IMG/VR virus record: IMGVR_UViG_3300002091_000022
DNA length: 64,000 nucleotides
Reading direction: 5' to 3' (one strand)
From: a virus
Shown here: in pieces, positions 2,633-19,085 of the stretch
Position numbering within the stretch: the stretch's first letter is position 1
Layout of the letters: each line of letters opens with the position of its first letter
Translations under genes and position numbers: made by a program
The notes under the pieces: generated by a model
What the model was told of the DNA's origin: nothing
Seen by the model: the letters and a program-made list of their open reading frames with translations, nothing else
Databases searched by the model: none

Positions 2633-2821
2633 ATGAATCAGTATGATATAACACTTGGAACTGGTAAGAGAACAGTTTTTGCTGATAACCATATTAAAGC
2701 ATTTGAAAGTTTGGGATATGGTAAAGATTATAAGATTACTTCAACTAATAAAAAATCTTGGCAAATAACGTTAAATGGACAAGTGGGGCATAAGAGAATT
2801 TACACTATAAACCAATTATAA
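2633..2821 (+). CDS. hypothetical protein
   Basis: ORF 18 nt after a cassette -7 box. Confidence 0.7.
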   Translation: MNQYDITLGTGKRTVFADNHIKAFESLGYGKDYKITSTNKKSWQITLNGQVGHKRIYTINQL

Positions 2822-2879
2822 AATAAATTTGGTTGGCAAGTAAAATAGTCTTATATTTGCATCACTAAATTAAACGGTT

Positions 2880-3200
2880 ATGGAAAAGTTTGTATTATCA
2901 TCTAAGACAATCATTAATACCTATTGGTGGAATCATGGCAGTAAGACAAAAGACTTTACTGGTACGATTGATGAGTGGTTAACGTTTCATAAGGTTAAGG
3001 TTACTAGGTTAAGACGTAAGAACGTATTACCCCGTTTCAAGTTTGATTTTACTGTTGGTAGGCATACGGTTTCGCTTACAACTGAAAGTAACGATTTTGA
3101 AGATGCAGCCCTTTATATCATAAGAATGTGGATAACCTACTTAGGGGATAAAGCCATGATTGTTACTGATTTAAGAGAATATAAAATAAACTGGAGATAA
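2880..3200 (+). CDS. hypothetical protein
   Basis: ORF with cassette promoter. Confidence 0.75.
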   Translation: MEKFVLSSKTIINTYWWNHGSKTKDFTGTIDEWLTFHKVKVTRLRRKNVLPRFKFDFTVGRHTVSLTTESNDFEDAALYIIRMWITYLGDKAMIVTDLREYKINWR

Positions 3201-3251
3201 ATTTGGTGGTTACCAAAAATACCCTTATCTTTGCAGTCTAAATAAAAAGTT

Positions 3252-3548
3252 ATGATACCGAAATGGGTTTTTGATAGCGTTAATGCTAGGGTAATACTTG
3301 AAGATGATAGTGAGGCTATTTTCTATACCGATACATTAAGTTGTTCTGATAGTGTTATTGAAAGGGTTGTTGAGATACACAACAATAGTAAACAAGAAAG
3401 TCTTGATTTGCTAGATTCTACTGAACAATATTTATTACCTGAAATTAAACAATATTTAATAGATGAAACAAACTGTAATGAGGATGATAAGGATTATCTT
3501 ATAGAAGCTATTTTCAACTATTATCAAGTTAAATGGTTTTGTTTATAA
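3252..3548 (+). CDS. acidic hypothetical protein
   Basis: ORF 18 nt after the -7 box; D/E-rich. Confidence 0.75.
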   Translation: MIPKWVFDSVNARVILEDDSEAIFYTDTLSCSDSVIERVVEIHNNSKQESLDLLDSTEQYLLPEIKQYLIDETNCNEDDKDYLIEAIFNYYQVKWFCL

Positions 3549-3584
3549 AAATACCCTTATCTTTGCATTACTAAATTAAATAAA

Positions 3585-3854
3585 ATGAAAAAAATTAAGA
3601 GTTTATTTGTATCAGCCTTGTTAATGGCTTGGAGAATGATTAAAGCACCGATTATGGGTCGTGTAGCGGATGCTGTATGTGATTACGATTATGAAGTTGG
3701 TGGTACTGTATGTTATCCAACGAATCAGCCATCATTTAACGAATGGTGCGAAATGTTTAACGTGTCAAAAGCGTGTCCGAAAGTAATTGTTATGAGTAAG
3801 GAACAAGTTGCCGACAAGTTAGGTATTAGTTCATCTAATCTAAGAATAATCTAA
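3585..3854 (+). CDS. hypothetical protein
   Basis: ORF with cassette promoter whose -33 box lies in the upstream gene end. Confidence 0.7.
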   Translation: MKKIKSLFVSALLMAWRMIKAPIMGRVADAVCDYDYEVGGTVCYPTNQPSFNEWCEMFNVSKACPKVIVMSKEQVADKLGISSSNLRII

Positions 3855-3926
3855 AAAAAGATTTGTTAGTTTCAAAAAAAGTCTTATCTTTGTGTTCTCA
3901 TATTAATTAACAATAAAAAAAACGTT

Positions 3927-4253
3927 ATGCCTAAAATCGGTAAAAAAAGTCCTGCTGAATTAGCAGCCTTTACAGTAAAGAAAATCAAGTTAGAAGCTGA
4001 AAAAGCCTCTAGGATGGTTCAAGTAGAAGAACTTAGTAAGTACATTAAATTTGGTCATGTTGGTGTCATTGACGGTGAACAAATTGCCGCTCGGTTAACT
4101 ACGTTGAAGCATGAAGAAGCCGCCGCTAAAGCTGACTTGGATGCACTTGAAAAGGAAAGTTGCGAAATGGCAGAAGAAGCATTTGAACACATCTTTGGTA
4201 ATGTGTTTGGTGGTATCTTTGACATTTTTGAAAAAGATGCTGAAAAGAAATAG
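3927..4253 (+). CDS. hypothetical helical protein
   Basis: ORF with cassette promoter, followed by a terminator. Confidence 0.75.
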   Translation: MPKIGKKSPAELAAFTVKKIKLEAEKASRMVQVEELSKYIKFGHVGVIDGEQIAARLTTLKHEEAAAKADLDALEKESCEMAEEAFEHIFGNVFGGIFDIFEKDAEKK

Positions 4254-4270
4254 TAGTATCCCCTGTTAAT

Positions 4271-4298
4271 AAAAGCCTACTGTAATAGGTAGGCTTTT
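4271..4298. terminator. bidirectional intrinsic terminator
   Basis: aaaagcctac-N8-gtaggctttt perfect 10-bp stem. Confidence 0.75.
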
Positions 4299-4404
4299 AT
4301 TCCTAACGATTTAAAGTTTGCCATAAGATGAAACGAATTGTTTATTTATTCATAGCGGCTATTAGTTTAATTGAAGTATTAAGCATGGTCATATACATTG
4401 TAAG

Positions 4405-4524
4405 ATGAAAAGATTAGTACTGGCTCTATTGGTTTGTTTGAGTTTAAGTAGTTGTGTTGTTAGGCATCATAGAATACACCACCACTTTAGACGACCACCT
4501 TGCCATTGTGGACCAATATTTTAA
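4405..4524 (+). CDS. small lipoprotein (39 aa, not in ORF track)
   Basis: MKRLVLALLVCLSLSSC signal/lipobox, then a His/Arg/Cys-rich tail ending HFRRPPCHCGPIF; the stop abuts the next -33 box. Confidence 0.65.
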   Translation: MKRLVLALLVCLSLSSCVVRHHRIHHHFRRPPCHCGPIF

Positions 4525-4577
4525 TTTGGTTGGTAATGAAAATTACCTTATATTTGCATCACAATAAAACATACAAC

Positions 4578-4643
4578 ATGAAAAGTATCGTTACAAAGGT
4601 TATATGCTGGGTTACTAGCTTACCTTTCACAATTTATTTTTAG
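4578..4643 (+). CDS. possible 21-aa peptide
   Basis: MKSIVTKVICWVTSLPFTIYF, directly downstream of cassette promoter 4525-4556. Confidence 0.35.
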   Translation: MKSIVTKVICWVTSLPFTIYF

Positions 4644-4754
4644 TTAAAATACTCCGTTCCTAACAAAGATGTTATTGAAGTTAAACTAGGTAATTGATTT
4701 GTCATTTGGTTGTATAGGGAAACAGTTATGCTAATGTTGCAACGTTTCTAGTGT

Positions 4755-4790
4755 GACTGTTAATCGTGGTTCGATTCCACAGCGGAGTGC
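4755..4790 (+). pseudogene. tRNA-like remnant (Asn-type anticodon loop plus T-arm)
   Basis: ga-CTGTTAA-tc at 4755-4765 immediately followed by gtgg-TTCGATT-ccac at 4766-4780; no D-arm or acceptor stem found. Confidence 0.3.
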
Positions 4791-4914
4791 AATTAATTTG
4801 GTCGGGCGTTGGAAGTAAGCAAAGTAATTGGGAACTTCACATAACGTTAATTTAGCTGGCAAATTCCTCACCTCACTGGTGGGGATTTGTTGGTTATAGT
4901 TTAAATAATCTATT

Positions 4915-4998
4915 ATGAATATTTTTATTGGTATCTGTTGTATTGTAGTGGCCGTGTTAATAGTTGGATTTATCTATTATAAATGTCCTACAAATTAA
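4915..4998 (+). CDS. small single-TM peptide (27 aa)
   Basis: MNIFIGICCIVVAVLIVGFIYYKCPTN; the stop abuts the next -33 box. Confidence 0.5.
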   Translation: MNIFIGICCIVVAVLIVGFIYYKCPTN

Positions 4999-5050
4999 AT
5001 TTGGTGGGTAACTAAAATACCCTTATCTTTGCATCATTAAATTAAACGTT

Positions 5051-5386
5051 ATGAGTAAGGTTCGATTAACAAAGCAATCCTTAATACCAATAGTAAATGC
5101 TCAACTAGTAAAAAGTGAATTACCATATACTGTTGTTAATGTTGAAACAACTAAATATACTGCTGACCAATATGAAGCTGGGGCGGCTCGGATTGTGTTT
5201 AAATTGAAACATGATGTTATTGTGGGTGAAGTAATACCTTTCAAAATGTTTTGTATGTATTCAATTAAAGAATTACAAGAACATTGTAATATTGGATATG
5301 AAATTGTAATTAACCGTATTTCGGCTGCAAGTTCCTTTCAAGAGAAATATCGTGTTGACCTTAAAAGAATAAATGAAACTGTATGA
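5051..5386 (+). CDS. hypothetical protein
   Basis: ORF with cassette promoter. Confidence 0.75.
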   Translation: MSKVRLTKQSLIPIVNAQLVKSELPYTVVNVETTKYTADQYEAGAARIVFKLKHDVIVGEVIPFKMFCMYSIKELQEHCNIGYEIVINRISAASSFQEKYRVDLKRINETV

Positions 5387-5973
5387 TAGACTTATTTAAA
5401 GACAAACAATTGGTTTTCTTGGAGAAAGACTATAAATGCCCTGCTAGTCAAGATAGCATTGATTATGGTATTAGGTTTTTAGATACTTGGCTTGAATTGC
5501 CTGACGAACAAGTTAACGCTATGATTGTCCATTATCAGTTTAATCAAATGGATAGAGATGAACTGGCAGCTATCATATTCAACCCTAATAACATTATCGT
5601 AACATATTCTGTATATGTACAAGGTAGCGATGCAATCTTCAAAAAACTAATGGCTACTACTGGTCGAAATGATGTTAAAGGGTTAACCTACATTGATGCT
5701 AGTGGAGCGTTAATAAAGTATCTAAATAGAAATCTTAGGGATGTTGAAAAGGATTTATATGATATTATTTCAGCTATTAATTCAAACAATATAATAACTA
5801 TCAATCACGGTGACATTCGAGGCTATGATGCGGTTAAACCTCAACTATTGAAGATTGACATTAAAGGTGCTTATCAAGATTGTGTGAGTTTAATTGAACT
5901 AAAAGAAGATAACTTTATACCGATTGATAAGAACTTATTTAATATAGGCAAAGAAAGGGTAAGAAATGTATAA
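5383..5973 (+). CDS. hypothetical protein
   Basis: ATGA overlap with the upstream gene (translational coupling). Confidence 0.75.
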   Translation: MIDLFKDKQLVFLEKDYKCPASQDSIDYGIRFLDTWLELPDEQVNAMIVHYQFNQMDRDELAAIIFNPNNIIVTYSVYVQGSDAIFKKLMATTGRNDVKGLTYIDASGALIKYLNRNLRDVEKDLYDIISAINSNNIITINHGDIRGYDAVKPQLLKIDIKGAYQDCVSLIELKEDNFIPIDKNLFNIGKERVRNV

Positions 5974-6027
5974 ATAAATTTGGTAGTATCAAAAATAGTC
6001 TTATCTTTGTAGCCTAAATTAAATGTT

Positions 6028-6786
6028 ATGAAATTTGTTAAGTTACAATTAAACCATTTTACTGTTGAACCTAAAGATAAAGTTCAATGGCGTTTATGCC
6101 TTGAAACAAGCGAGGATATTAGAAATTACAGTAAGTTAGATGCTGAAAAGATTTTTACCGCTTATCTACATAGTGATAATGAAAAGCACCCTCCCGAAGG
6201 TAGGCTATCTGCCATAATGCGATTATTGGATAGTACAAGACGTTGCCTTAAAGAAGGTGAAGTAATGTACCCTATGATTGAAATTGCAAACATTTGTGAT
6301 AGCAAGGCTATTGGTATGGAAAAAATACTTAAACATAGTCCTGTATTGGTTAATATGGTTGGTGGTTATTGTGATTATAACGGTTTTGTTAAGCAATGGA
6401 ATTGTGACATACTTGAAGAAATTGTAACCGATGGAATTGGGTTTCCTGTTGAAATAAAAGAAAGTGACGTACTGGTACTGGAGAATAACAGTTCAATAAC
6501 CATTACTGTATCAGATTATCTAAACCATAACAATATTACTGATTATGCGGTTATCAAGTTACTAAAAGAAGTTGATAGTAACTTAGTTAAAAACGCTATC
6601 ATTCGTGCCAACACAATAATAATCGAAAGTCAATTTTTAGACAATATGCAAAATGAAAGATTTTTGATGTTGTTTGATTCATTACCTAAGAAGCGTATTG
6701 TGTTATTCAGTACTAACTTCGCTAAACTCAAAGAATATTCAATGTTTAAAAGTATTTCAGAAAAGCATGAAATAATATTTGGCTAG
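6028..6786 (+). CDS. hypothetical protein
   Basis: 252-aa ORF 18 nt after the -7 box. Confidence 0.8.
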   Translation: MKFVKLQLNHFTVEPKDKVQWRLCLETSEDIRNYSKLDAEKIFTAYLHSDNEKHPPEGRLSAIMRLLDSTRRCLKEGEVMYPMIEIANICDSKAIGMEKILKHSPVLVNMVGGYCDYNGFVKQWNCDILEEIVTDGIGFPVEIKESDVLVLENNSSITITVSDYLNHNNITDYAVIKLLKEVDSNLVKNAIIRANTIIIESQFLDNMQNERFLMLFDSLPKKRIVLFSTNFAKLKEYSMFKSISEKHEIIFG

Positions 6787-6827
6787 TATCAAAAATACCC
6801 TTATCTTTGTATCCTAAATTAAATGTT

Positions 6828-7088
6828 ATGGCAACGAAAGTAAAATTTTTGGTACACAAATGGAACGGCGAACTTTACGCTTTTTTCCCACAATTAAGGT
6901 ATGCGCCTAATGGACATCGTAATGACCTTAAAACTGGTATCGTTCAGACCTCAACATTAACTGGTAGCCAATTAGTTAAAACTGGTATTGGATTTGAGTA
7001 CGTTGAACAAAGTCGAAAGGCAACTAAGAATGAGTATCACGATTTTAAAGCTAAACTTATTCAAAATAATCTAATAGGTTGCGCTTAA
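6828..7088 (+). CDS. hypothetical protein, paralog of the N-terminal half of 7909..8385
   Basis: Start corrected to 6828 (MATKVKFLVHK); shares FLVHK..ELxAxFPQL and EYVxxSRxATxxEYxD. Confidence 0.7.
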   Translation: MATKVKFLVHKWNGELYAFFPQLRYAPNGHRNDLKTGIVQTSTLTGSQLVKTGIGFEYVEQSRKATKNEYHDFKAKLIQNNLIGCA

Positions 7089-7785
7089 CGTCACGGTTTA
7101 TATAACTGCAAAGCGGACGAAGATTGGTGTAATGATTTAATCTAATTACATCATCTTCGTTAATAGCTGAATCAACTGGAATGATATGGTCAACATCCCA
7201 ACCGTAATCGGCTGTACCATTGTATAAACCTTTATTTTCCCATGACATCCACGGTTCAAATTGACCCTCAAGATGTTCTTTGAACTGCTCGAAAGTACAA
7301 CCTAATATTTCAAAAGTCCTTGATTTTTTAGTGTACCCTTTACGTTTAATTGAACTATTAATTAATGTTCGCATATTGCAAGCTAAACCAAACAGCTTAT
7401 CGTTTTTACGTCTTTCTCTCATATAAGTGTTTAGTTTATCTCTGTTAGTATCTCTATAGATTTTAGCTTTAGCTTTAATAACATCTTGATTAGTATCCCT
7501 ATATTCCTTTGTCTTAATTAATATGGTTTCCTTATTATTTATATAATACTTTTTAAGACTTTTACTTGTTGACTCCTTAACCTTATCAGGATTATTTTCT
7601 CTATACTCTTTATGTTTAGTTAATATAGTATCTTTATTAGCTTCATAATGTAAACGGTTTTTTTCATTCATTAACTCTTTATTAGCTTTATAATACTCTT
7701 TCTTTTGAGCAGCAATTTTCTCTTTAGCTTTTAATTTGTAGGCATCGTTACAGGCTTTTTGTTTTACTGGGTCTTTATATGGCAT
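7057..7785 (-). CDS. HNH/EndoVII-like homing endonuclease with N-terminal KxYRxxNxD repeats
   Basis: LGCTFEQFKEHLEGQF..MSWEN..WDVDHIIPV..NHYTNLRPL; ATATTTAT upstream at 7800-7807. Confidence 0.75.
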   Translation of the reverse strand: MPYKDPVKQKACNDAYKLKAKEKIAAQKKEYYKANKELMNEKNRLHYEANKDTILTKHKEYRENNPDKVKESTSKSLKKYYINNKETILIKTKEYRDTNQDVIKAKAKIYRDTNRDKLNTYMRERRKNDKLFGLACNMRTLINSSIKRKGYTKKSRTFEILGCTFEQFKEHLEGQFEPWMSWENKGLYNGTADYGWDVDHIIPVDSAINEDDVIRLNHYTNLRPLCSYINRDVKRNLLDYFE

Positions 7786-7908
7786 AATTTCTCTTTATAA
7801 TAAATATCATAGAAAAGAGTAAAAATTCATAAATCTTTACGATACCCAAAAATAAATTTGTTTGGTATTAAATATAGTCTTATATTTGCAATCTAAATTA
7901 TAAACGTT

Positions 7909-8385
7909 ATGGCAACTAAGGTTAAGTTTCTAGTACATAAGCAAAACAAAGAATTATTTGCTTACTTTCCACAATTGGTATTTGATAGTAAAGGTAATAA
8001 GGCTTGTTATGCACACAACGGGCAACACTCCGCTTGTGCAATCGAGTATGTTAACGAAAGTCGATACGCTACTGAAAGCGAGTATAAAGACCTCAAAAAA
8101 GAACTAGAGGGGCAAGGTTATGAACTAATAGTTTGTGACGGTGTAAAGACAATAGATAAGATAATCTATAAAGTCGATACTAAGAGGGGTGCGCCTATGG
8201 GTCGAATGAATCATGGCTATCCTCAAAGTGGTAAAAAAGTCTATGATTGTAAAGTACCTATGAGTGACGGTGCTTATGATAAAGGCGGTGCTTACTGGGG
8301 GTTAGGTGCTGAATTAAGGGTGCGATACCATAAAGATAAATCGTATATCGAATTTTACCGATTAGGTGACAGTTTTGAAAAATAA
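7909..8385 (+). CDS. two-domain phage hypothetical protein
   Basis: N-half has YAHNGQHS..EY..L..EL..QGY; C-half has GAPMGR..YDKGGAYWG. Confidence 0.8.
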   Translation: MATKVKFLVHKQNKELFAYFPQLVFDSKGNKACYAHNGQHSACAIEYVNESRYATESEYKDLKKELEGQGYELIVCDGVKTIDKIIYKVDTKRGAPMGRMNHGYPQSGKKVYDCKVPMSDGAYDKGGAYWGLGAELRVRYHKDKSYIEFYRLGDSFEK

Positions 8386-8437
8386 ATTTGGGGGTATAGA
8401 AATATACCCCTATATTTGCATAACTAAATTAAACGAT

Positions 8438-8860
8438 ATGGAACTTCTACAACCGTCCGAAAAGTATATCAATTTTATTGAGAACTCCCACCACTATCTA
8501 AATTGTCCTAAGTATGAGCTAAATGCTAATATTAGAACTCAAATAAGGTTTAACTGGAATGATAAAGATGCGGCTAAGTCTGTGGTTAAAGCTGCTTTAA
8601 AGTATTACGATATTAAGTGTAATGATTTAGATAAACTAATATTTGACCACATCCATACTAGTGAAGCTGACTTTATGAAGCTGAATGTTAATGCTTATAT
8701 AGATAAGATGCCTGCACACATTTATAATTTATCTAAACGAATAGACGACTGGTACAAAGCTAATGTATTAAACCCTAAAGATTATCTAGTTGGCTGTCCA
8801 ATGTATCACAAAGCATTGCAATCGCAAGGTTATTCATATCCTCACAAATATATTTTGTAG
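8438..8860 (+). CDS. hypothetical protein
   Basis: Start corrected to the ATG 19 nt after the -7 box. Confidence 0.75.
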   Translation: MELLQPSEKYINFIENSHHYLNCPKYELNANIRTQIRFNWNDKDAAKSVVKAALKYYDIKCNDLDKLIFDHIHTSEADFMKLNVNAYIDKMPAHIYNLSKRIDDWYKANVLNPKDYLVGCPMYHKALQSQGYSYPHKYIL

Positions 8861-8902
8861 TTTGGTAAAATAGTCTTATATTTGTATCCTAAATTAAATG
8901 TT

Positions 8903-9085
8903 ATGGCAACGAATGTTACTGGGATTAAATTATACAAGCGTGGTTCAATTATTGTTATTTGGTATGGGTTGTTAAATTACAAATACATTTATTGGAGTAA
9001 AAGAGATGCCTGTAAGAAGTTCAAAGAAAGATTTGGCTTGAGGGGTAAAGTAGAAACTGTTAATCGTTCCCCGTACTTAAATTAA
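8903..9085 (+). CDS. hypothetical protein
   Basis: Start corrected; basic 60-aa ORF. Confidence 0.7.
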   Translation: MATNVTGIKLYKRGSIIVIWYGLLNYKYIYWSKRDACKKFKERFGLRGKVETVNRSPYLN

Positions 9086-9136
9086 ATTTGGTGGGTATCA
9101 AAAATACCCTTATCTTTACAATCTAAATAAAAAGTT

Positions 9137-9412
9137 ATGAGTACTGTAAGAGTTGGTAAAGCATTTTTAAAGAAAATTGCTGATTTAACCGATGAAAATT
9201 ATCACGGTGAATGTTTACTAGTAATTGCCAAAAAGTTTAAGCTGCAAAAGTATATTGATGGCTTTACAGATGTTATCGAAAAACATAACAAAGCTGGGCA
9301 TTTAACCTATGAATTATCATTGAAACGTAGGGGGTTATCCGATGAAATGTTTAAGGAATTGGTGAAGGAACACGGTCAAGAAATCGTAAACAAAATTACA
9401 TCACAAATGTAA
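9137..9412 (+). CDS. hypothetical protein
   Basis: ORF 18 nt after a TATCTTTA variant box. Confidence 0.75.
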   Translation: MSTVRVGKAFLKKIADLTDENYHGECLLVIAKKFKLQKYIDGFTDVIEKHNKAGHLTYELSLKRRGLSDEMFKELVKEHGQEIVNKITSQM

Positions 9413-9423
9413 AATGTATCATT

Positions 9424-9612
9424 ATGTTAATAGTTTATCTAGCACCAGAGTTTACAGAAAGTGACGACTTCACTTTTGAAGGTGACGACCAACGTAAGGA
9501 ACTAGTACTGAATCATCCTAAGAGTGTTAAGTACACTCCATTAGATTTTCAAGTTGCTTTCAATGAAAGTGAAATTAGTGACTTGGGATATATCTACTTC
9601 ATTAATGATTAA
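9424..9612 (+). CDS. acidic hypothetical protein
   Basis: 62-aa ORF 11 nt after the upstream stop. Confidence 0.65.
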   Translation: MLIVYLAPEFTESDDFTFEGDDQRKELVLNHPKSVKYTPLDFQVAFNESEISDLGYIYFIND

Positions 9613-9623
9613 TCTAATCTATT

Positions 9624-9800
9624 ATGATACAGTTAAGTTCACATCACGAAATGAGAATTGTCTTAAAGAATTATAGGTTGGAACCCCTGCCTGATATACC
9701 TATTAGATTAGATAAACCGAAAGGTGGAACTATACCTTTCCCGACCAAATTAAATAAGGGATATAATTCCCAAAAAAGATTTGGCAGAATGAGAAAATAG
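9624..9800 (+). CDS. possible 58-aa basic protein (not in ORF track)
   Basis: MIQLSSHHEMRIVLKNYRLEPL...FGRMRK; fills the gap and runs into the next promoter. Confidence 0.4.
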   Translation: MIQLSSHHEMRIVLKNYRLEPLPDIPIRLDKPKGGTIPFPTKLNKGYNSQKRFGRMRK

Positions 9801-9843
9801 TCTTATATTTGCAGTATCAATTAACAATCTAAAAATTAATGTT

Positions 9844-10056
9844 ATGGCATCAAAGGTAGTTACAAAAACTCGTAGTTATGTGGTTAAGTTAGCCGCTGAA
9901 AAAAAATTCACCACATCTTATAGTGGTAAAGAAAAACGTTTGTTCATTCATGGAGCGGACGAAAAAAGTGTAAAGAACTTTATAGTAGCACTGCAATTTA
10001 AAGGCTTATCCCAAAAGACGCTTGGATTCGATATGCTTGCAGTAGCTAAGAACTAG
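9844..10056 (+). CDS. hypothetical protein
   Basis: ORF with cassette promoter; terminator at 10083-10110. Confidence 0.75.
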   Translation: MASKVVTKTRSYVVKLAAEKKFTTSYSGKEKRLFIHGADEKSVKNFIVALQFKGLSQKTLGFDMLAVAKN

Positions 10057-10082
10057 GTACATAGCGTTTAGATTTAGCCAAT

Positions 10083-10110
10083 AAGCCCCCACCTAACTGG
10101 TGGGGGTTTT
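10083..10110 (+). terminator. intrinsic terminator
   Basis: cccccacc-taact-ggtggggg followed by tttt. Confidence 0.75.
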
Positions 10111-10194
10111 GCGGTAAATAGATTATCTAAAATATAAAAATAAATTTGGTGGGTAATTAATAAACCCTTATCTTTGTATCCTAAATTAAACGAT

Positions 10195-10518
10195 ATGGAT
10201 AAGTTAACTAAAGAATCAGTACCTAATGAAGTGGTATTGAAGTTTAAAGGGTTTAAAGTTACTGGTACTACATTTGTCACTTGTTGGGGTGGTGGTAGCG
10301 GAAACATTGGTTTGAAGCCTTTTAGTTTAGATGAAGTAACGGACGAAACGTTATTAGATAATCTAAACGATAATGGTTTTGGTGTTCAAAGCATTGACGG
10401 TGGTGTATGTGACATTTGGGCGGTGTATGGAGATAACCATACGGTGTTTCAAGAAACGGTTACGGTGGGTCGTGTTCCTGATGACTGGGAAGAAATACAC
10501 GAAGCTAACGACATTTAA
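10195..10518 (+). CDS. phage hypothetical protein
   Basis: Start corrected; CWGGGSGNIG and NDNGFGVQSIDG motifs. Confidence 0.78.
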   Translation: MDKLTKESVPNEVVLKFKGFKVTGTTFVTCWGGGSGNIGLKPFSLDEVTDETLLDNLNDNGFGVQSIDGGVCDIWAVYGDNHTVFQETVTVGRVPDDWEEIHEANDI

Positions 10519-10626
10519 TTTTGGTTTTGGTTCTATATAACGGGGATGGGTATCTACTCGACCCCTTTTTTTTTTATTTGGTGGTTTGAAAAAATAGTCT
10601 TATATTTGTATCCTAAATAATAAATT

Positions 10627-10869
10627 ATGTACAATTACGAAGGTAAATTACCTAATAGCCCTAAACAACCATTCACGGTAAGGGTTAAATATACATTTGA
10701 TGTTGAGTATAAGATTAATGCTACATCTAAAACAGAAGCAAGAGAATTGATTAATACTCAATGTGGTTTAACCTTGGGTGGCAATATTCATAGCACATTG
10801 GCAGATGAAGACATTGACTGGGAAGCTGGTACGCATCCCGAAACAAAAATCGTATCAATTAAAGATTAA
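10627..10869 (+). CDS. hypothetical protein
   Basis: ORF 18 nt after the -7 box. Confidence 0.75.
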   Translation: MYNYEGKLPNSPKQPFTVRVKYTFDVEYKINATSKTEARELINTQCGLTLGGNIHSTLADEDIDWEAGTHPETKIVSIKD

Positions 10870-10904
10870 TTTGGTGGTATCAAAATAAACCCTTATATTT
10901 GTGT

Positions 10905-11000
10905 TCCAATTGGTTACGAAGGATAAACTTAATGGTAGCCTCACAAGGTTCGAGAGTGGGTAACAGGTGGCGTTACTCATCCATTAAGTTTACTTTCATT
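10905..11000 (+). ncRNA. candidate structured RNA (three-way junction) with its own cassette promoter
   Basis: 12-bp perfect stem 10924-10935/10981-10992 enclosing hairpins 10937-10950 and 10956-10980; promoter at 10870-10901. Confidence 0.5.
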
Positions 11001-11013
11001 TAAACTATAAAGT

Positions 11014-11202
11014 ATGAAGAAATATCGTATCTATGTTATTAACGGTACACCAGCGTTCTATAATAGAATAATTGAATGTACAGGAATGGTTGAAAGTACC
11101 AATGGTTATTATCGCTTCTATAAGGATAATGGTAGTGCTGCCAGTAAGACTATTGCCTTATATCCCATTATGCACACGATTGTTGAACTGATTGAGGATT
11201 AG
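11014..11202 (+). CDS. hypothetical protein
   Basis: 62-aa ORF downstream of the structured leader. Confidence 0.7.
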   Translation: MKKYRIYVINGTPAFYNRIIECTGMVESTNGYYRFYKDNGSAASKTIALYPIMHTIVELIED

Positions 11203-11231
11203 ATACACAAAAGTGTACATAACATGACATT

Positions 11232-11519
11232 ATGGCTAGATTGGAGCTTATAGTTAAGATAAACCAATACATTGAAAAGTTTGGCGTTATAACCTATTCC
11301 GATTTACCATCCGATGTTGAACTACAGTTTGAATCAATGGGTAACGGTAAGTACATATCAATGTTCGAGATATTTGAACAGGATAAGGTAACTTGCTTTA
11401 TATATAATACTGAAAATGATGGAGTAGATATTGGTCGTTATACAATGAAGTATAATGATTTACCTAATCCATCATTGAAGCAAATAAGCAAAGCGTTAAA
11501 ACGCTTTACCAGTGCATAA
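11232..11519 (+). CDS. hypothetical protein
   Basis: 95-aa ORF. Confidence 0.7.
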   Translation: MARLELIVKINQYIEKFGVITYSDLPSDVELQFESMGNGKYISMFEIFEQDKVTCFIYNTENDGVDIGRYTMKYNDLPNPSLKQISKALKRFTSA

Positions 11520-11685
11520 GAGCATACGGGTTTTGTCCTAATTCCCTAAGCTTCTTTACCAATTCTTGAAACTTTATTGGTGTAATTTGAAACGTGCAAG
11601 TGTTCTCTGTATTCTCGGTATATTTACGTTTAGGTAACATAGACTGAAAATAAGGAATCTGTGCTTTTGCAATTAATACATACAT
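11506..11685 (-). CDS. 59-aa hypothetical protein on an inverted cassette (not in ORF track)
   Basis: Minus-strand TTTG (11740-11737), TATATTTG (11716-11709) and ctaattaaattaaac leader; MYVLIAKAQIPYFQSMLPKRKY...GQNPYALMHW. Confidence 0.7.
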   Translation of the reverse strand: MYVLIAKAQIPYFQSMLPKRKYTENTENTCTFQITPIKFQELVKKLRELGQNPYALMHW

Positions 11686-11802
11686 AATAGTTTAATTTAA
11701 TTAGGCTGCAAATATAGTGGTATCTTTCCAGTTAAACAAATAAAAAAATAAATTTGTCCAGTATCAAAAATACCCTTATCTTTGTATCCTAAATTAAATG
11801 AT

Positions 11803-12135
11803 ATGAGTGCAGCACTAAACGAAGTAATTAAGAACACGGTACAACGTGATTTCGATGCAAAAGAAACATTGCAAGTATTAACAATTAACAAACCAATTTA
11901 TTGGTCTTGGGGTGTATCTAATAGGTATGCTGATAAGAACTATTTACTCTTAAAGGTTTCGGGTCACCACCATAAGGGTTATGTATTAATTACCCTAAAC
12001 TATAATGATACATACAAGGTTAGTATTGTTAGTTATAGGGGTAAACTACTCCAAACATTTGATGAAGTCTATTTTGACCAATTGACTGAAATAATAGATA
12101 ACCGTATTGAGAAGATAGCTAACTATACTTATTAA
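11803..12135 (+). CDS. phage hypothetical protein
   Basis: Start corrected; WSWG..LLKVSGHHHKGYVLITL..NDTY. Confidence 0.8.
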   Translation: MSAALNEVIKNTVQRDFDAKETLQVLTINKPIYWSWGVSNRYADKNYLLLKVSGHHHKGYVLITLNYNDTYKVSIVSYRGKLLQTFDEVYFDQLTEIIDNRIEKIANYTY

Positions 12136-12210
12136 TAGTTTATCTAATCTGAAAAATAAATTTGGCTATGTGCAAACATAGCCTTATTTTTGCACTCTAA
12201 ATAAAACGGT

Positions 12211-12771
12211 ATGAGTACTAAAGTAAAACATTTCTTATCTAGTGATTTTGTTGATACCTACAAAAATATTAAGAAGGGCGAAGTTGTAGAGTATGAGAAT
12301 AAAAGGTATAGGGTAATTTGGATTGTAATGGAACTAGGCGAAGCAATCATATTCTTACAAAAGATTAAGAAAGACGGTAAGCCATACAACAACCTTTCAC
12401 CCTTTGGCGTTAAGTATAACAAGCTAAAAAATATTGAAGCAGTTAGTTTAATGTTTCCACAGTTTGATTGGACGTATAACAAAGATAATGACGGTTATTT
12501 TGCCACTAAGCAAGTAAACAGGATTGATAAGAGGTTGGCTGATAAAAGTCGTGTATCATATTACACTATTTATATCTTCATTAGTAGCTTATCTGAAAGG
12601 AATGGTACTAGGTATGCAATGTGTTGGCAAAAGATTGAAATTACCCGTTACAGGTGCAGAAATAGCCATGAAGCAGAATTTAACAAGTCATTCGTTTATG
12701 ATGCTAGTTTAGATAAACTATTAGAAAAGTTAAAGGCGGCTACTGATATGAATAAGTTTGTAACTAAGTAA
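12211..12771 (+). CDS. hypothetical protein
   Basis: ORF 18 nt after the -7 box. Confidence 0.78.
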   Translation: MSTKVKHFLSSDFVDTYKNIKKGEVVEYENKRYRVIWIVMELGEAIIFLQKIKKDGKPYNNLSPFGVKYNKLKNIEAVSLMFPQFDWTYNKDNDGYFATKQVNRIDKRLADKSRVSYYTIYIFISSLSERNGTRYAMCWQKIEITRYRCRNSHEAEFNKSFVYDASLDKLLEKLKAATDMNKFVTK

Positions 12772-12828
12772 AAATAAATTTGGCTATGTGAAAAAATAGC
12801 CTTATTTTTGTATCCTAAATTAAATGAT

Positions 12829-13335
12829 ATGAGTAACTACTTAACACCTGAAAAAAAAGCATACTATCAAAATGAGTTTGCTAAAGTACTACAATGTAAA
12901 GATACTGATTGGGATTTAGATAAAGGATTATTAAGTATCCTAACCGAAATTAATAAGAATCCAAACATACAAACAATACTCTCAAAACGTAGTGAGAATT
13001 TAACTAAAAGCAATGATAGTTATTTACATTTCACTTTTACTAAAGAAGTTGAAGAAAAGTTGAAACGCATTTTATGGCGTATGAAAACAACATTTGAAAG
13101 GAAAGGTAATGGTAACGGTCTGGGTGTAAAATACTATGCTGCTGAACATTTTTCCGATATGGAAGTTGACGAAAGTGAGGTTGACCAAAACATTAAAAAC
13201 CTTGATTGTGTTACTAATGTAAAGAATTATATTGATATTGATTCGTTATTTGTACAGTTATTTAGCTTTAATGAAAGGGTGCATGAATCGTTTTGGGAGA
13301 CACTTAAAAAAGAATTAGGTAGTGTCACAAAATAA
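12829..13335 (+). CDS. hypothetical protein
   Basis: Start corrected to the in-frame ATG 18 nt after the -7 box. Confidence 0.78.
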   Translation: MSNYLTPEKKAYYQNEFAKVLQCKDTDWDLDKGLLSILTEINKNPNIQTILSKRSENLTKSNDSYLHFTFTKEVEEKLKRILWRMKTTFERKGNGNGLGVKYYAAEHFSDMEVDESEVDQNIKNLDCVTNVKNYIDIDSLFVQLFSFNERVHESFWETLKKELGSVTK

Positions 13336-13364
13336 CCTTATTTTTGTACTCTAAATAAAACGGT

Positions 13365-13559
13365 ATGAGTAACTATACAACTGAACATAAACATATTAGC
13401 AAAATTGTATCAGGTGACACAATAATGCACAACGGTGAAATGAAAACCGTTACCAATACAAATATCAAACACGATGCCTTTATGGGTACTTCATTATTTG
13501 GTGACAGTTATAATATTGGTTACAAATTGGTTGAGGTTCTTAACTTCAAAACAAAGTAA
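13365..13559 (+). CDS. phage hypothetical protein
   Basis: HISKIVSGDTIMHNGEMKTV..FMGTSLFGDSY; cassette promoter. Confidence 0.75.
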   Translation: MSNYTTEHKHISKIVSGDTIMHNGEMKTVTNTNIKHDAFMGTSLFGDSYNIGYKLVEVLNFKTK

Positions 13560-13616
13560 AAATAAATTTGGTTGGTATCAAATATAACCTTATCTTTACA
13601 CCCTAAATCATATTAT

Positions 13617-13829
13617 ATGTTATTCATTGAATGGTGGAGCGGTTTATCGCTTAATGAGCAAAGAGAATACTCTAAAAAGCATTTAGATTGTTACTACTAT
13701 GCTTGTATATGGGATTACAGCCTAAGTAAGTATGTAAAGGATAGTCTATTCTGTAAAATTATAGAAATAGTTTGGGATAATGAAATAAATTTGGCGGAAC
13801 CAAAAAATAGCCTTATATTTGTACCCTAA
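13617..13829 (+). CDS. hypothetical protein
   Basis: Start corrected; the 3' end reads through the next promoter repeat. Confidence 0.6.
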   Translation: MLFIEWWSGLSLNEQREYSKKHLDCYYYACIWDYSLSKYVKDSLFCKIIEIVWDNEINLAEPKNSLIFVP

Positions 13830-13839
13830 ATTAAAAGTT

Positions 13840-14064
13840 ATGGAAGGACAAAATTATTACGAAGGACAGTTGAACAACATTGAGGTTGGTAAGACTGAAT
13901 TTGCACCAACGTTCAAAATATTTGCAAATGGTAATGGTGCGGACACTAAACACTTATCATTGAATAATGATAGTGCTACTGAACTAGTGAAGTGGTTATC
14001 AAAGAACTTTGATGTAAGAGGGGTTGATGCTTACCCGACACTATTTGCACTTAGTCTAAATTAA
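13840..14064 (+). CDS. hypothetical protein
   Basis: Start corrected. Confidence 0.75.
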   Translation: MEGQNYYEGQLNNIEVGKTEFAPTFKIFANGNGADTKHLSLNNDSATELVKWLSKNFDVRGVDAYPTLFALSLN

Positions 14065-14115
14065 ATTTGGTAGGTAACTAAAATACCCTTATCTTTGTAT
14101 CCTAAATTAAATGAT

Positions 14116-14433
14116 ATGGCAAAGAGTAAACATTACACAGGTTCGGATTTAGGGCAAGACTTTCGTACCTTTTACACTAAGGAAACTAATCGGATTAAGA
14201 AGGTATTAACAGAAATGGGATGTACCAACATTGAGTTCTCTAGGCAGTTCTACTACTTTTATGGATTCTTTACAGCACCTTCGGGGCAAGTGTATTATAT
14301 GAGTTGTAGTGATGTAAGGCATTTTCCTTATGAAAAACTATTGTATCGTACAGCCGCAACTTATAAGGATTACACGGGCGGTTATAACTGTTACGTTAAA
14401 CCTGATGGCATTAAGTTTATCAATTTCAAATAG
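14116..14433 (+). CDS. phage hypothetical protein
   Basis: Start corrected; YYMSCSDVRHF..LLYRTA..KDYTGG. Confidence 0.8.
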   Translation: MAKSKHYTGSDLGQDFRTFYTKETNRIKKVLTEMGCTNIEFSRQFYYFYGFFTAPSGQVYYMSCSDVRHFPYEKLLYRTAATYKDYTGGYNCYVKPDGIKFINFK

Positions 14434-14509
14434 TTTTGGTTTTAGTCTCTCATATAAAAGGGGTTCTATGTCTATAGTGACCCCTATTTTTATAGTTTAG
14501 ATAAACTGT

Positions 14510-14569
14510 AAAATAAATTTGGTGGTATCAAAAATAGTCCTATCTTTGTATCCTAAATTAAATGATATG
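14510..14569 (+). promoter_or_regulatory. Representative cassette element: Bacteroidota primary-sigma promoter (-33 TTTG / -7 TAnnTTTG) plus 18-nt AT-rich spacer to the ATG
   Basis: aaaataaaTTTGgtggtatcaaaaatagtccTATCTTTGtatcctaaattaaatgatATG, near-identical to the copy at ~15747-15806. Matches the established Bacteroidota housekeeping promoter consensus. Confidence 0.9.
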
Positions 14570-14800
14570 TACACAGTACTACTAACAAAAGACAAGCAAG
14601 AAATTAAAATCCTTTCGCAACAATATGTTTGCGGAACGTATGTAACAATCAATGGTATGCAAACAGGCACTACTGAAAAAGAAGACATATACCATAAGAA
14701 GTTAAGAATTAAAGCAATAAAGCTGGGCGATACGATTACAGGCGGCTCGGTGATTGACTTAAAAAGTAAATTCCCTATCAATACATTTGTATCAAACTAA
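14567..14800 (+). CDS. hypothetical protein
   Basis: Start corrected. Confidence 0.72.
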   Translation: MYTVLLTKDKQEIKILSQQYVCGTYVTINGMQTGTTEKEDIYHKKLRIKAIKLGDTITGGSVIDLKSKFPINTFVSN

Positions 14801-14861
14801 TTAAAATAAGATTTGGCTATATGCAAATATAGCCTTATCTTTGTATCCTAAATTAAAGGTT

Positions 14862-15182
14862 ATGACTAATTATGCAATGTTTTTGTGTTCCCCTCTAGGT
14901 GAGAAAACTATTAATAGTTTATCTAAACGTAAAAAGGAGTTAACTATGTCTGACAAAATTGGTAAGATGTTTACCCCTGACATAAGGTTTGAGTTAATGC
15001 CCAAAACAGGTTGTTACAATGTACTTGGATTAAGTGAAGCAGGTAAACTATTCGTGACTAAGATTAGCGGCATTAAGATGGAGAAAGGTAAAATGATTGC
15101 TACTAGTTTAATTGAACCAATATATGAATATGCCTTGAAGCTAGAGTTAACTACTGAAAGGATTGACGGTGACGAAAATTAA
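14862..15182 (+). CDS. hypothetical protein
   Basis: Start corrected. Confidence 0.72.
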   Translation: MTNYAMFLCSPLGEKTINSLSKRKKELTMSDKIGKMFTPDIRFELMPKTGCYNVLGLSEAGKLFVTKISGIKMEKGKMIATSLIEPIYEYALKLELTTERIDGDEN

Positions 15183-15233
15183 ATTTGGTGGCTATCAAAA
15201 ATAGTCCTATCTTTGTATCCTAAATTAAATGTT

Positions 15234-15662
15234 ATGCAAAAAGTATTGGTTCAAGTAATTGTAAATGTAATGGTTAACCTAGACGATAATACGTTAATAG
15301 GTGAAGTAATGGAAAGTATGTCACATAGTTTCAGCTTAAACCAAAGTGATAGTAGTATTGCTAAAACTGAAATTATCCATTATGATGTTATACAAGCTAT
15401 TGATGTTCGTGATGGTGAAGGTTTCGGGATTAAGGTTGAGGTTTCCCCTCGTGACAAGTTCATTAATGAGTTTGAAGCTAGGATATTGGACGGCTTAACA
15501 GGTGATAGGTTATCCACTAAGGTTTCAACTTGTGATTATCCTAATTGGAGTATTGATGAGTACCAATATATGCCAACAGTAGCCGAAAGGTTAAGGGCTA
15601 AAGGGTACACCGTAAGTAGTAAAATTAATCATGGTGTAACTGATTGGTACATTAGTAAGTAA
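15234..15662 (+). CDS. hypothetical protein
   Basis: Start corrected. Confidence 0.75.
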   Translation: MQKVLVQVIVNVMVNLDDNTLIGEVMESMSHSFSLNQSDSSIAKTEIIHYDVIQAIDVRDGEGFGIKVEVSPRDKFINEFEARILDGLTGDRLSTKVSTCDYPNWSIDEYQYMPTVAERLRAKGYTVSSKINHGVTDWYISK

Positions 15663-15697
15663 GATATTTTTTGATTTGGTGAATAAATGTTGATTGG

Positions 15698-15725
15698 GCG
15701 AGGTGTTTCTACACCTTGCTTTTTT
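15698..15725 (+). terminator. intrinsic terminator
   Basis: gcgaggtgt-ttct-acaccttgc followed by T6. Confidence 0.75.
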
Positions 15726-15803
15726 ATTAGATTATCTAATCTATTAAAAATAAATTTGGTAGTATCAAAAATAGTCCTATCTTTGTATCCTAAATTAAAC
15801 GTT

Positions 15804-16268
15804 ATGAGTAAGGCTAAAAAGAAGGAGTTTATTGTAGTAGGTGAAACACCTAGAGTATCAGTAGAAATGGCTGAACAGATTCAGGGGTTACAAAAAAAAC
15901 TTATGACCCCCGAACATGTAGTTTTTGTTGGACAGTTATTTGAAACAGAGTTTGAGAAGGTAATGGTTTATCCCGTATTATTTAGCGTGGAGTTCTTTAA
16001 AGCATTAAAAAAATCTGTGTTGGAACTGATACCTAACACTATTATAGTCGTTGATAATATGTTTGATAGTGATGGGTGGTTATATATCGAACATTGTCCT
16101 AAAGACGATTATCCACGTCAAAAGACAATCTTCTTTAGAAATAAAATTAAATGGGAGGATAAAAATGAGTATGCTAAACGCTTACTACAATACTGCATTG
16201 ATAATCAGTTTAACATTGTACTACAAAAAAATAGAAGTGTGTTTCAATCGGAATTTGTATTGTATTAG
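15804..16268 (+). CDS. hypothetical protein
   Basis: Start corrected to the ATG 18 nt after the -7 box. Confidence 0.75.
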   Translation: MSKAKKKEFIVVGETPRVSVEMAEQIQGLQKKLMTPEHVVFVGQLFETEFEKVMVYPVLFSVEFFKALKKSVLELIPNTIIVVDNMFDSDGWLYIEHCPKDDYPRQKTIFFRNKIKWEDKNEYAKRLLQYCIDNQFNIVLQKNRSVFQSEFVLY

Positions 16269-16285
16269 GTTATCTAATCTAATAT

Positions 16286-16643
16286 ATACACTTTTGTGTA
16301 CATAGAAAATAAATTTGGTGGTTATCAAAAATACCCTTATCTTTGTATCCTAAATTATAAGTTATGTTAGACAGGACAAAAGCAGTAGATAAGGGTACAA
16401 TGGATTCAACGCTTAAACGGCTAATTAAATCAGCACCAAACTTTAATCCTAAAGACGTTAAATATGTTGATGACAATACTATTAATGGGGATTATGGGTT
16501 CGATTTTTACTCATGGAGTTACTGGGGTATGAGTGGTGGTGGTTCAATATGTGCAGTCGTTACTGATACATATAATAGTTATTTGAGGTTTCGGAAACTA
16601 CAAGAACAAGCACAAGGTTAAGAATATACACTTTTGTGTACAT
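16286..16643. repeat. ATACAC-W4-GTGTACAT palindrome (4 copies)
   Basis: 320-337 and 11203-11220 (AAAA core); 16286-16303 and 16626-16643 (TTTT core); each within 20 nt after a stop codon. Confidence 0.85.
16364..16621 (+). CDS. hypothetical protein
   Basis: Cassette flanked by identical 18-bp palindromes at 16286 and 16626. Confidence 0.75.
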   Translation: MLDRTKAVDKGTMDSTLKRLIKSAPNFNPKDVKYVDDNTINGDYGFDFYSWSYWGMSGGGSICAVVTDTYNSYLRFRKLQEQAQG

Positions 16644-16666
16644 TAGTTGTTAATTAGATAGTAAAC

Positions 16667-16698
16667 AAAATAAGGGGCTAATTTCTTAGCCCCCTATT
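16667..16698. terminator. bidirectional terminator between convergent cassettes
   Basis: ggggctaa-tttc-ttagcccc with A/T flanks. Confidence 0.7.
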
Positions 16699-16705
16699 AG
16701 TTTAA

Positions 16706-16819
16706 TTAATCCAATAAAGCAAATATAGCGTCATTTTCATGCTCTTGTTCTATTAAGTCGATTAACTCTTCAACTTGAATAGTACTGCTAAAATCGTCAT
16801 AACACCAATTAAATTCCAT
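16706..16819 (-). CDS. 37-aa acidic peptide (not in ORF track)
   Basis: MEFNWCYDDFSSTIQVEELIDLIEQEHENDAIFALLD, with the typical aaattaaacgttATG leader. Confidence 0.6.
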   Translation of the reverse strand: MEFNWCYDDFSSTIQVEELIDLIEQEHENDAIFALLD

Positions 16820-16888
16820 AACGTTTAATTTAATAGATTAGATAAAATAATAAACGAGGTTACAATAATAGTAACCCCGTCCGATTGG

Positions 16889-17026
16889 TTAACGTAAATA
16901 CTTTGCTCTTGCATCCCCCCATGACATATTTGGGCAATGTTTAGTACTAGTACAACTACTGAAGTTAAATAATAACCACAATAAACCAATAAGGGCTAAT
17001 AACCTGATAACTAATAATGTTCGCAT
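16889..17026 (-). CDS. small lipoprotein (45 aa) on an inverted cassette (not in ORF track)
   Basis: MRTLLVIRLLALIGLLWLLFNFSSC lipobox; minus-strand promoter 17077-17045, ATG 18 nt downstream. Confidence 0.7.
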   Translation of the reverse strand: MRTLLVIRLLALIGLLWLLFNFSSCTSTKHCPNMSWGDARAKYLR

Positions 17027-17318
17027 AACTTTTAATTTAGAGTGCAAATATAAGGTTATTTAATCTATTGAAACAAATTTATTTTTATCTACACTTATAT
17101 AGTAATAGATAAGATAAACCATTAAAAAATAAATTTGGTACTTTCAAAAAATAGCCGTACCTTTGGGGTTTATCCTTGAAAGGATATTGTTAACAAGATG
17201 TTAAAGGACGTTAATACTTTAAATAAAATAAAAAAAGATTAGTTCAATTCAAATTAAACCCCTATCTTTGCACTGCCTTAGCGATATTGCAAGGGTAAAA
17301 CAATCTAAATTTAAAGTT

Positions 17319-18197
17319 ATGTTAAACGTACAAAATGTTAATTTGAAAGGTGGTACTATCCAACAGGACAACATTTTTGTTGATTCTAGTGTTAAAAGTG
17401 TTAATGAGTTAACAGGTTTTGAAGCTATTAAGGGTAAAGAAAATTTAGTTATTAGCAATGGCAAAGTTGTTAATATGGTATCAAACAAGTATGGACATTT
17501 GCCAAATGAAAAGCTATTTTTGCCATGTGAGGAACAACTTATAAATGCTGACATTCAGTATTTGACACGGTCTATTAACAAAAATGATTGCAGTTTTGCA
17601 GTAGATTACATCTTAAACGATGACACTTTTAACGTTGCTATTAATGGCAATATAAAGGACAAAATTCGTCCGATGTTACATATTGTAAACAGTTATGATG
17701 GTAGTGCCAAAACTAGTGGTTCTTTTGGCTTTTTTAGAGAGGTTTGCAGTAATGGCTTAAACATTGCTACAACAAAAGTAGGGTTTAGTGTTAAGCATAG
17801 AAACAACGTTGTTGAAGTTGTTATTCCTAAACTTGAATTGTTAGTAAAGGAATTTATGAGTAATGAGTATTACACTTTAGAAAAAAAGTTTGAAGTATTA
17901 GCGGCGAAGGAATTAAACGGTATTAATGAAGTACAGGCTTTTGTAAAAAAAGTTTGTGAGGAAACAAAGGTTTTCAAATTTGAAGCCAGCGACAAAAACC
18001 CTTTACCTTCATTAAATTCTAATATCGTAATTGATAGCATTATAAACGAAAGTTTGATGTTAGATGTTAAACCTAATATGTGGCTTGGTTTCAATGCTTT
18101 TAATGAGATACTATACAACAAGTTTAATAAGTCATTCGACATATTAAGGGAGTACGATAATACTATTTTTGAAACGGTGTTAGAGATGGCAAACTAA
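17319..18197 (+). CDS. DUF932-family (phage/plasmid TIGR03299-like) protein
   Basis: VSNKYGHLPN; LHIVNSYDGS..GFFREVCSNGL; start corrected to 17319. Confidence 0.8.
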   Translation: MLNVQNVNLKGGTIQQDNIFVDSSVKSVNELTGFEAIKGKENLVISNGKVVNMVSNKYGHLPNEKLFLPCEEQLINADIQYLTRSINKNDCSFAVDYILNDDTFNVAINGNIKDKIRPMLHIVNSYDGSAKTSGSFGFFREVCSNGLNIATTKVGFSVKHRNNVVEVVIPKLELLVKEFMSNEYYTLEKKFEVLAAKELNGINEVQAFVKKVCEETKVFKFEASDKNPLPSLNSNIVIDSIINESLMLDVKPNMWLGFNAFNEILYNKFNKSFDILREYDNTIFETVLEMAN

Positions 18198-18217
18198 AGT
18201 AGCTCGAAAACAAACAT

Positions 18218-18241
18218 AAACCCCTCAAATTTGAGGGGTTT
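18218..18241. terminator. intrinsic terminator
   Basis: aaacccctcaa-at-ttgaggggttt. Confidence 0.75.
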
Positions 18242-18435
18242 TTGCTTTTTAAGCCTATCCCATTAAAAACACATTGCAGCCCGAAAATAAGCCTTAAAAT
18301 CAATATTTTGATATACTTACATTTATTCACTCAGGATTAAAAAAAATATTGGTTTATTTAAAATATAATTTGTTTGGTATTAAATAAACCCCTATATTTG
18401 CACTCTAATTAATTAACAATCTAAATTTAAACGTT

Positions 18436-19041: not shown

Positions 19042-19050
19042 CCCACCAAA

Positions 19051-19085
19051 TAAAGTTATCCACATACAAAGTGTGGATAACTTTA
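19051..19085. promoter_or_regulatory. 14-bp inverted repeat containing two perfect DnaA boxes
   Basis: TTATCCACA at 19056-19064 and TGTGGATAA at 19072-19080, within taaagttatccaca-N7-tgtggataacttta. Confidence 0.55.

Follow-up and report, generated by a model that had tools for sequence, protein, structure and literature searches.

We describe a compact structured RNA that, judging from sequence comparison, appears to be encoded in the genomes of several large phages of freshwater, in most cases close to genes for tRNAs and other RNAs. It was recognised in a 64,000-nucleotide stretch of viral DNA (hereafter the window), downstream of one of the promoters in an array of short genes. Its core of about 49 nt is almost certainly a genuine conserved structured RNA. 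Eight distinct sequences were collected, falling into about four sequence lineages.

Structure and conservation of the core RNA

The RNA lies between a Bacteroidota-type promoter and a 62-aa open reading frame. The elements considered below have the following positions in the window.

10870..10873, plus strand: TTTG, the -33 box of a Bacteroidota-type cassette promoter of the kind that heads about 30 cassettes in 1-18.4 kb
10894..10901, plus strand: TAnnTTTG, the -7 box of this Bacteroidota-type cassette promoter
10902..11203, no strand assigned: 302-bp presence/absence unit containing the RNA and the ORF; the contig of strain X4 joins 10901 to 11204
10918..10933, plus strand: 5' strand of the P1 extension (5 bp, a bulge and 10 bp), confined to the phage group of the window
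10934..10982, plus strand: conserved 49-nt core, GG-U-P2-CGNRAG-P3-K-CC, as given by the homolog alignment
10937..10950, plus strand: hairpin P2, with 4 bp (10937-10940/10947-10950) and a 6-nt loop, or 5 bp and a 4-nt loop
10941..10944, plus strand: probable kissing strand of loop 2 (U-C-A-C), partner 10967-10970
10951..10956, plus strand: junction linker C-GNRA-G, GAGA here and GUAA in the outside copies; its C, G, A and G are invariant
10957..10979, plus strand: hairpin P3, 8 bp plus an A·C here, 9 bp elsewhere
10967..10970, plus strand: probable kissing strand of loop 3 (G-U-G-G), partner 10941-10944
10983..11001, plus strand: 3' strand of the P1 extension, U-rich from 10989
11014..11202, plus strand: 62-aa ORF, in the 302-bp unit together with the RNA

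Transcription presumably starts near 10907-10909, as we assume from what is generally known of Bacteroidota promoters. The -7 box is separated from the next ATG (11014) by 112 nt, compared with about 18-25 nt in most sister cassettes; the unusual length of this gap had been pointed out in a preliminary description of the same DNA. The MFE fold of the 114-nt stretch has an energy of -31.2 kcal/mol (z = -3.02), and one of 200 shuffled sequences folded equally well. Three helices, namely the closing stem and both hairpins, are present in the MFE and centroid folds alike, the 5-bp and 9-bp hairpins being those drawn in the preliminary description. The region is also GC-richer than its surroundings, as had been stated there: the GC fraction is 0.55 in the core and 0.375 in the 112 nt, against 0.32 in positions 1-18400.

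Other parts of that description hold for the window more than for the family. The closing stem (10924-10935/10981-10992) is indeed a perfect 12-bp helix here, but homologs keep just its GG/CC. The 9-bp hairpin is present, but its outermost G-U is G-G in half of the copies, and P3 of the window is therefore counted as 8 bp plus an A·C. Finally, the element is structured, but the conserved unit is the 49-nt core, less than the 112 nt. The long P1 is perfect in the window group only, partial in L117 and L113, and reduced to 2 bp in L146, L147 and L225; in relatives an A>G change within the P1 extension still pairs, as G·U. The segment 10983..11001 is a possible 3' end of a putative small RNA; a simple terminator scan made no terminator call at this U-rich end.

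Covariance models were needed to find homologs, because BLAST returned only noise: chance matches when the element or its homologs were compared with cultured phages, and promoter and AT-rich noise in 28 related phage contigs. A model built from close strains gave the first distant match, L113, in the contig of a relative (G015). L117, L146, L147 and L225 were gained via pattern scans and a second covariance model; the sequence of L147 is identical to those of L175 and L218. The first exact pattern had zero matches in viral sequences, and a scan of genome contigs with a pattern fitting only some of the variants gave three chance matches. Pattern matches at L115, L131, L136 and elsewhere were dropped, as they have neither P3 nor the closing CC, and metagenome matches L004-L007 were attributed to chance. 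A search run without a positive control found no copy in six large phages known by name, among which are Flavobacterium phage immuto and four megaphages.

The shared unit of 49-50 nt consists of GG, U, hairpin P2, the C-GNRA-G linker, hairpin P3, a single U or G, and CC. The window core shares 24-30 of its 49 positions with L113, L117, L146 and L147. When the copies are aligned by their invariant positions, allowing one gap in a loop, pairing is seen in 124 of 128 stem cells, and 10 of the 16 stem pairs are compensatory, that is, changed on both sides. MAFFT on its own produced a nearly identical alignment. In the model-fitted alignment, which is biased towards the structure, 96.1% of cells are paired, a value reached by none of 500 shuffles, with slid controls at 31-48%; three of four pairs in P2 and six of nine in P3 change on both sides. 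The RNAalifold consensus contains both hairpins, P2 as well as P3, and its covariation term is -3.8. A descriptor made of GG, CG...G, CC and the two stems matched only the eight members in 3.4 Mb of fetched loci, on both strands. The new structured RNA suggested in the preliminary description, which had named a lack of covariation among homologs as part of what would refute it, gains strong support from compensatory changes across diverged copies.

Loops 2 (U-N-N-C) and 3 (G-N-N-R) have complementary sequences and probably form a 4-bp kissing helix, which had previously been missed. Of its 32 cells 29 are paired, whereas 7-12 are paired when the partner is slid. The complementary triplets are CAC/GUG in the window and L117, and GCC/GGC in L146 and L147. 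We regard it as probable, short of proven, since the two pairs that change on both sides do so together on one branch, and three copies have a mismatch or bulge; one strain of the window group has an A·C within the helix.

Twenty of the 49 positions are invariant, junction bases among them, and the C-G of the linker could close a GNRA turn. Inside the otherwise freely covarying P3, the wobble G10959·U10977 and the pair U10961-A10975 are invariant. In a helix that otherwise varies, pairs that never change usually point to a surface for docking or protein contact, and they may do so here. Neither the invariant linker nor the invariant G·U pair figured in the preliminary description. The linker starts with CGU in five copies and with CGA in three, and J3/1 (10980) is a single base, U in four copies and G in the other four.

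Genomic context in the window phage and its relatives

The window comes from a large tailed phage whose terminase, portal and major capsid genes are T4-like. Its sequence occurs in freshwater metagenomes, and it has hundreds of uncultured relatives, for which CheckV completeness figures imply genomes of about 330-350 kb. Positions 1-18.4 kb form a cassette array of about 30 short genes, each preceded by a TTTG...TAnnTTTG promoter, which is the Bacteroidota housekeeping consensus. The host is likely Flavobacterium-like, since the DUF932 gene of the window is 52% identical to Flavobacterium phage genes. The major capsid ORF (55078-56997, 639 aa) matches T4-like capsid proteins in residues 365-616 only, its long N-terminal part being outside the match.

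Three loci (L001, L002 and L003) are near-identical to the window element, with changes confined to a P1 position that becomes G·U, loop 3, the unpaired base 10980 and the 3' spacer. In strain X4 position 10901 is joined directly to 11204, and both the RNA and the 62-aa ORF are missing. This absence was observed in a single contig with a depth of 11, from an independent run, and fits insertion and deletion alike. The unit is missing exactly from the -7 box onward, and therefore the same promoter drives the next gene. The idea that the cassette system carries an RNA cargo suits the window copy in this respect. No PHROG entry matches the 62-aa protein, and its matches in the Atlas are all below 0.9. 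Its homologs are 92% identical in close strains, and two distant ones are at 47-50%; both of the latter lie within operons and have no leader RNA.

The palindrome TACAC-N4-GTGTACA forms intergenic repeats at 321-336, 11204-11219, 16287-16302 and 16627-16642 of the window, and occurs in relatives too. One end of the 302-bp indel coincides with the copy at 11204-11219, and immediately ahead of this copy L002 carries an inserted HNH-type gene on the reverse strand; the palindrome may be a site where recombination or insertion is frequent. Related reverse-strand genes of the HNH/endonuclease VII type (L002:2832-3416, L002:4110-4931 and window 7057-7785) occupy differing intergenic sites in the array, one such insertion being located at a terminator-like hairpin near 10545-10575. 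A T-arm-like hairpin within an ORF-poor gap of the array (4730-4795) suggests a degenerate tRNA-like RNA; neither ARAGORN nor the Rfam tRNA model matched this gap. The end of the array (19042-19324) combines homopolymer runs of G and of C with A/T tracts and an inverted repeat of 16 bp, and is possibly a genome end, a terminal-repeat boundary or an origin.

All five outside copies (L113, L117, L146, L147 and L225) lie in ORF-free RNA clusters that are served by Bacteroidota promoters. In L113 the motif is preceded by tRNA-Leu, tRNA-Met, a Bacteroidota promoter and a boxA-like sequence, and followed by a weak tRNA-like RNA and then a GC-rich ORF-free stretch. The tRNA-like RNA scores 20 bits and the stretch, of about 270 nt, has no Rfam match (together L113:548-890); a second module of this kind is seemingly found 3' of the motif in L146, L147 and L225 too. 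In L117 tRNA-Met and a boxA-like sequence precede the motif, and a GOLLD RNA (269.8 bits) follows it; two megaphage GOLLD homologs have no motif at the corresponding spot. In L146, L147 and L225 the motif belongs to an ORF-free RNA string, of which about 235-250 nt come before it, and in one context it sits between A-rich spacers within the string. When L205 is compared with L218, the core stands out as a 94%-identical island between RNA regions that cannot be aligned.

The terminases of three related records (G011, G010 and G015) are 73-76% identical to that of the window. The L117 contig has no terminase match, and its ORFs near the motif are unmatched in the window; it may come from a second phage lineage, or be a fragment. 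The core RNA is optional between relatives. The final model found it in 6 of 54 phage records, most of which are fragments, and gave no match in a relative that is 93% complete. The number of tRNA genes is 1-3 in records with the motif, and two records with large tRNA arrays (27 and 13 genes) have no motif, in a comparison of few records, mostly fragments (G002 and G012 against G010, G011, G015, G030 and G054). Genes for tRNA-like RNAs with long insertions in the D-loop region adjoin GOLLD in L138 (G030, upstream of tRNA-Met), L139 and L140, and a freshwater-1 RNA (RF02979, 73.4 bits) lies within the tRNA array of the related phage G002 (L148:215-277).

Candidate modes of action

We see an even chance that the core is a new small phage RNA acting in trans by its shape, as a putative ligand or decoy of a host protein. 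The 2-bp GG/CC stem closes P2 and P3, which are joined by the C-GNRA-G linker, and the probable 4-bp kissing helix would produce a rigid tertiary fold of about 50 nt. The RNA would be made early in infection by the host RNA polymerase and released as a stable small RNA, bounded in the window by the long P1 and the U-rich tail; read-through past this tail would then allow expression of the 62-aa ORF. The target might be a host protein that handles tRNA-like or structured RNA, for example a defence nuclease or a translation component. Action by shape is suggested because the loops are probably engaged with each other and the invariant bases are concentrated at the junction and along one face of P3. 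By the same pairing of the loops, antisense action is unlikely. An antitoxin mimic or an anti-CRISPR RNA, both mentioned in the preliminary description, are likewise disfavoured, as the loops appear to be mutually paired and no CRISPR-repeat or antitoxin model of Rfam matched at E<=10. On the other hand, the copies represent only about four independent lineages, and three of the four contexts place the motif close to where a transcript begins, a position that would also fit action in cis.

The main rival is protection or processing in cis, where the motif would be a 5' module of the RNA that follows it: a knot blocking nucleases or a processing signal, by which the 5' end of GOLLD, a tRNA-like RNA or an mRNA would be set or protected, including a new self-cleaving ribozyme. 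The motif stands just 5' of GOLLD in L117, of the tRNA-like RNA in L113 and of an mRNA in the window. Like small ribozymes and nuclease-resistant RNAs, it is compact and has many invariant positions (20 of 49). However, close GOLLD homologs do without the motif, three copies are embedded about 235-250 nt inside an RNA string, and, for a ribozyme, the core bases of the hammerhead are absent and the J3/1 base varies between U and G. We thus hold action in cis to be rather unlikely, though worth serious consideration. The position of the hairpin pair about 25-30 nt past the promoter in the window and L113, and directly after the boxA-like sequence in L113 and L117, might instead point to antitermination, with the nascent RNA modifying the polymerase like HK022 put or a nut site. 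This is improbable, as the copies in L146, L147 and L225 are far from a promoter and upstream of a convergent gene, and about 30 sister cassettes have no motif.

A cis-regulatory leader for 11014..11202, as proposed in the preliminary description, or a riboswitch for this ORF, would explain the promoter and the 302-bp unit common to the RNA and the ORF. Moreover, the candidate kissing-loop junction resembles purine riboswitches, whose junction is organised by kissing loops. However, none of the five outside copies directly precedes an ORF on the same strand, the distant relatives of the 62-aa ORF are in operons with no such RNA, the fold ends 16 nt ahead of the ATG, and no Rfam riboswitch model matched; a leader role therefore seems quite improbable. 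The riboswitch-like architecture with its invariant junction bases, the 2-bp P1 of several copies, the absence of an expression platform and the early promoter in the window phage could also mean that the RNA is a free aptamer, a sponge for a small signalling nucleotide of host anti-phage defence. Many RNAs that bind no ligand share this architecture, and the prospect is a very slim one. Lastly, the window copy could be a drifting passenger captured with the ORF, in a family functional elsewhere. GAGA instead of GUAA and the A·C atop P3 are found in the window group alone, one of its strains has an A·C in the kissing helix, and the unit is dispensable. Nevertheless, despite 19-25 differences from the outside copies in 49 positions, the window copy keeps all 20 invariant bases and nearly all pairs, and strain variants are confined to loops, the unpaired J3/1 base or changes neutral for pairing. 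The probability of a passenger is close to negligible.

Phage RNA clusters hold many orphan RNAs, and the trans-acting candidate described here is one with a defined covarying fold and a likely tertiary contact. Assays of cleavage, ligand binding, pull-down and structure would be cheap, because the fold is defined and has 49 nt, and strains with and without the unit exist naturally. That the motif is present both in an early cassette array and in RNA clusters suggests that the early cargo of phages can include RNA beside small proteins.

Comparison with known RNAs

Infernal searches of Rfam 15, a check proposed in the preliminary description, gave nothing for the window copy at the gathering score or at E<=10, and no model overlapped the homologous copies. 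As for tRNA or tRNA-like RNA, neither ARAGORN nor the Rfam tRNA model called the window copy, and no cloverleaf was found. Mimicry of an anticodon loop was considered and rejected, as loop 2 is anticodon-like but covariation favours a different stem register; a T-loop reading of the linker region of the window was dropped, since the region involved is not conserved. We found no description of the fold in the literature, and it may be one of the approximately 10,000 unnamed candidates of Fremin et al. 2023 (PMC10690425). It is fairly unlikely that the 49-nt fold is a new functional class of RNA, either a new self-cleaving or processing ribozyme or a protein-free early decoy or aptamer neutralising a host defence protein, a signal molecule or a ribosome factor.

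Type III hammerheads have a CUGANGA strand, GAAA with the catalytic G12, and an NUH site. The core RNA resembles them in the one-base first junction, the 4-nt turn closed by C-G in the long junction strand, and the contact between the loops of a short and a long stem, with the long/short order reversed. However, CUGANGA is absent (C-GNRA-G in all eight copies), GAAA is replaced by the single variable J3/1 base, and there is no NUH site. The preliminary description had likewise seen no hammerhead or riboswitch core, in agreement with the absence of these bases and of an Rfam riboswitch match.

In the SRP Alu domain the first hairpin is long and the second short; in the core RNA the order is the opposite, short first and long second. 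Both have a three-way junction, a pseudoknot between hairpin loops, with moderate support in our case, and a short closing helix (PMC4231752). Both also have a conserved linker between the hairpins, UGU-N-R in the Alu 5' domain (PMC4231752) and CGU-A in most copies of the core RNA; UGU in the joining loop was seen in none of the eight copies, and the window group has CGA. There is no helix 5 or S domain, P1 has 2 bp in three copies, and no locus had an SRP match in Rfam. Model R3 had zero matches in 101 Bacillota genomes, in a search that ran without a positive control, as the three SRP loci that were fetched show no clear Alu fold.

The PeSLs of T4-like phages are terminator-plus-promoter units upstream of a gene (PMC2839356, PMC4122927). 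In a way that recalls PeSL-mediated shuffling of cassettes (PMC4122927), early promoters are repeated in a variable region here and an indel breakpoint falls at a promoter box. Unlike PeSLs, the structured RNA comes after the promoter, is present in a single copy and also has homologs that are not in any cassette array. STnc100/PasD (RF02076) are also small, structured and phage-borne, and are base-pairing sRNAs of enterobacteria with seed regions (bioRxiv 10.64898/2026.05.13.724894); in contrast, no free conserved seed is apparent in the core RNA, and RF02076 matches none of its copies.

The closest parallels are in phage tRNA clusters, among them GOLLD (RF02032), a small structured RNA (PMC12286853). 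A reading of the motif as a GOLLD 5' domain was rejected: the core RNA is not part of GOLLD, because close GOLLD homologs lack the motif, and the conserved 3' domain of GOLLD is found behind the L117 copy only, with none in the window. T4 species 1 and 2 are also small structured RNAs of phage tRNA clusters. The core RNA shares the defining property of such RNAs, a free-standing conserved fold in ORF-free phage RNA strings, and appears from its sequence relationships to be an undescribed family of this known general kind, the orphan small RNAs of phage tRNA clusters. Like freshwater-1 (RF02979), T4 species 1 and 2 and GOLLD, it occurs in ORF-free strings near tRNAs and is optional; unlike them, it has only about 50 nt, and its window copy stands in an early cassette array.
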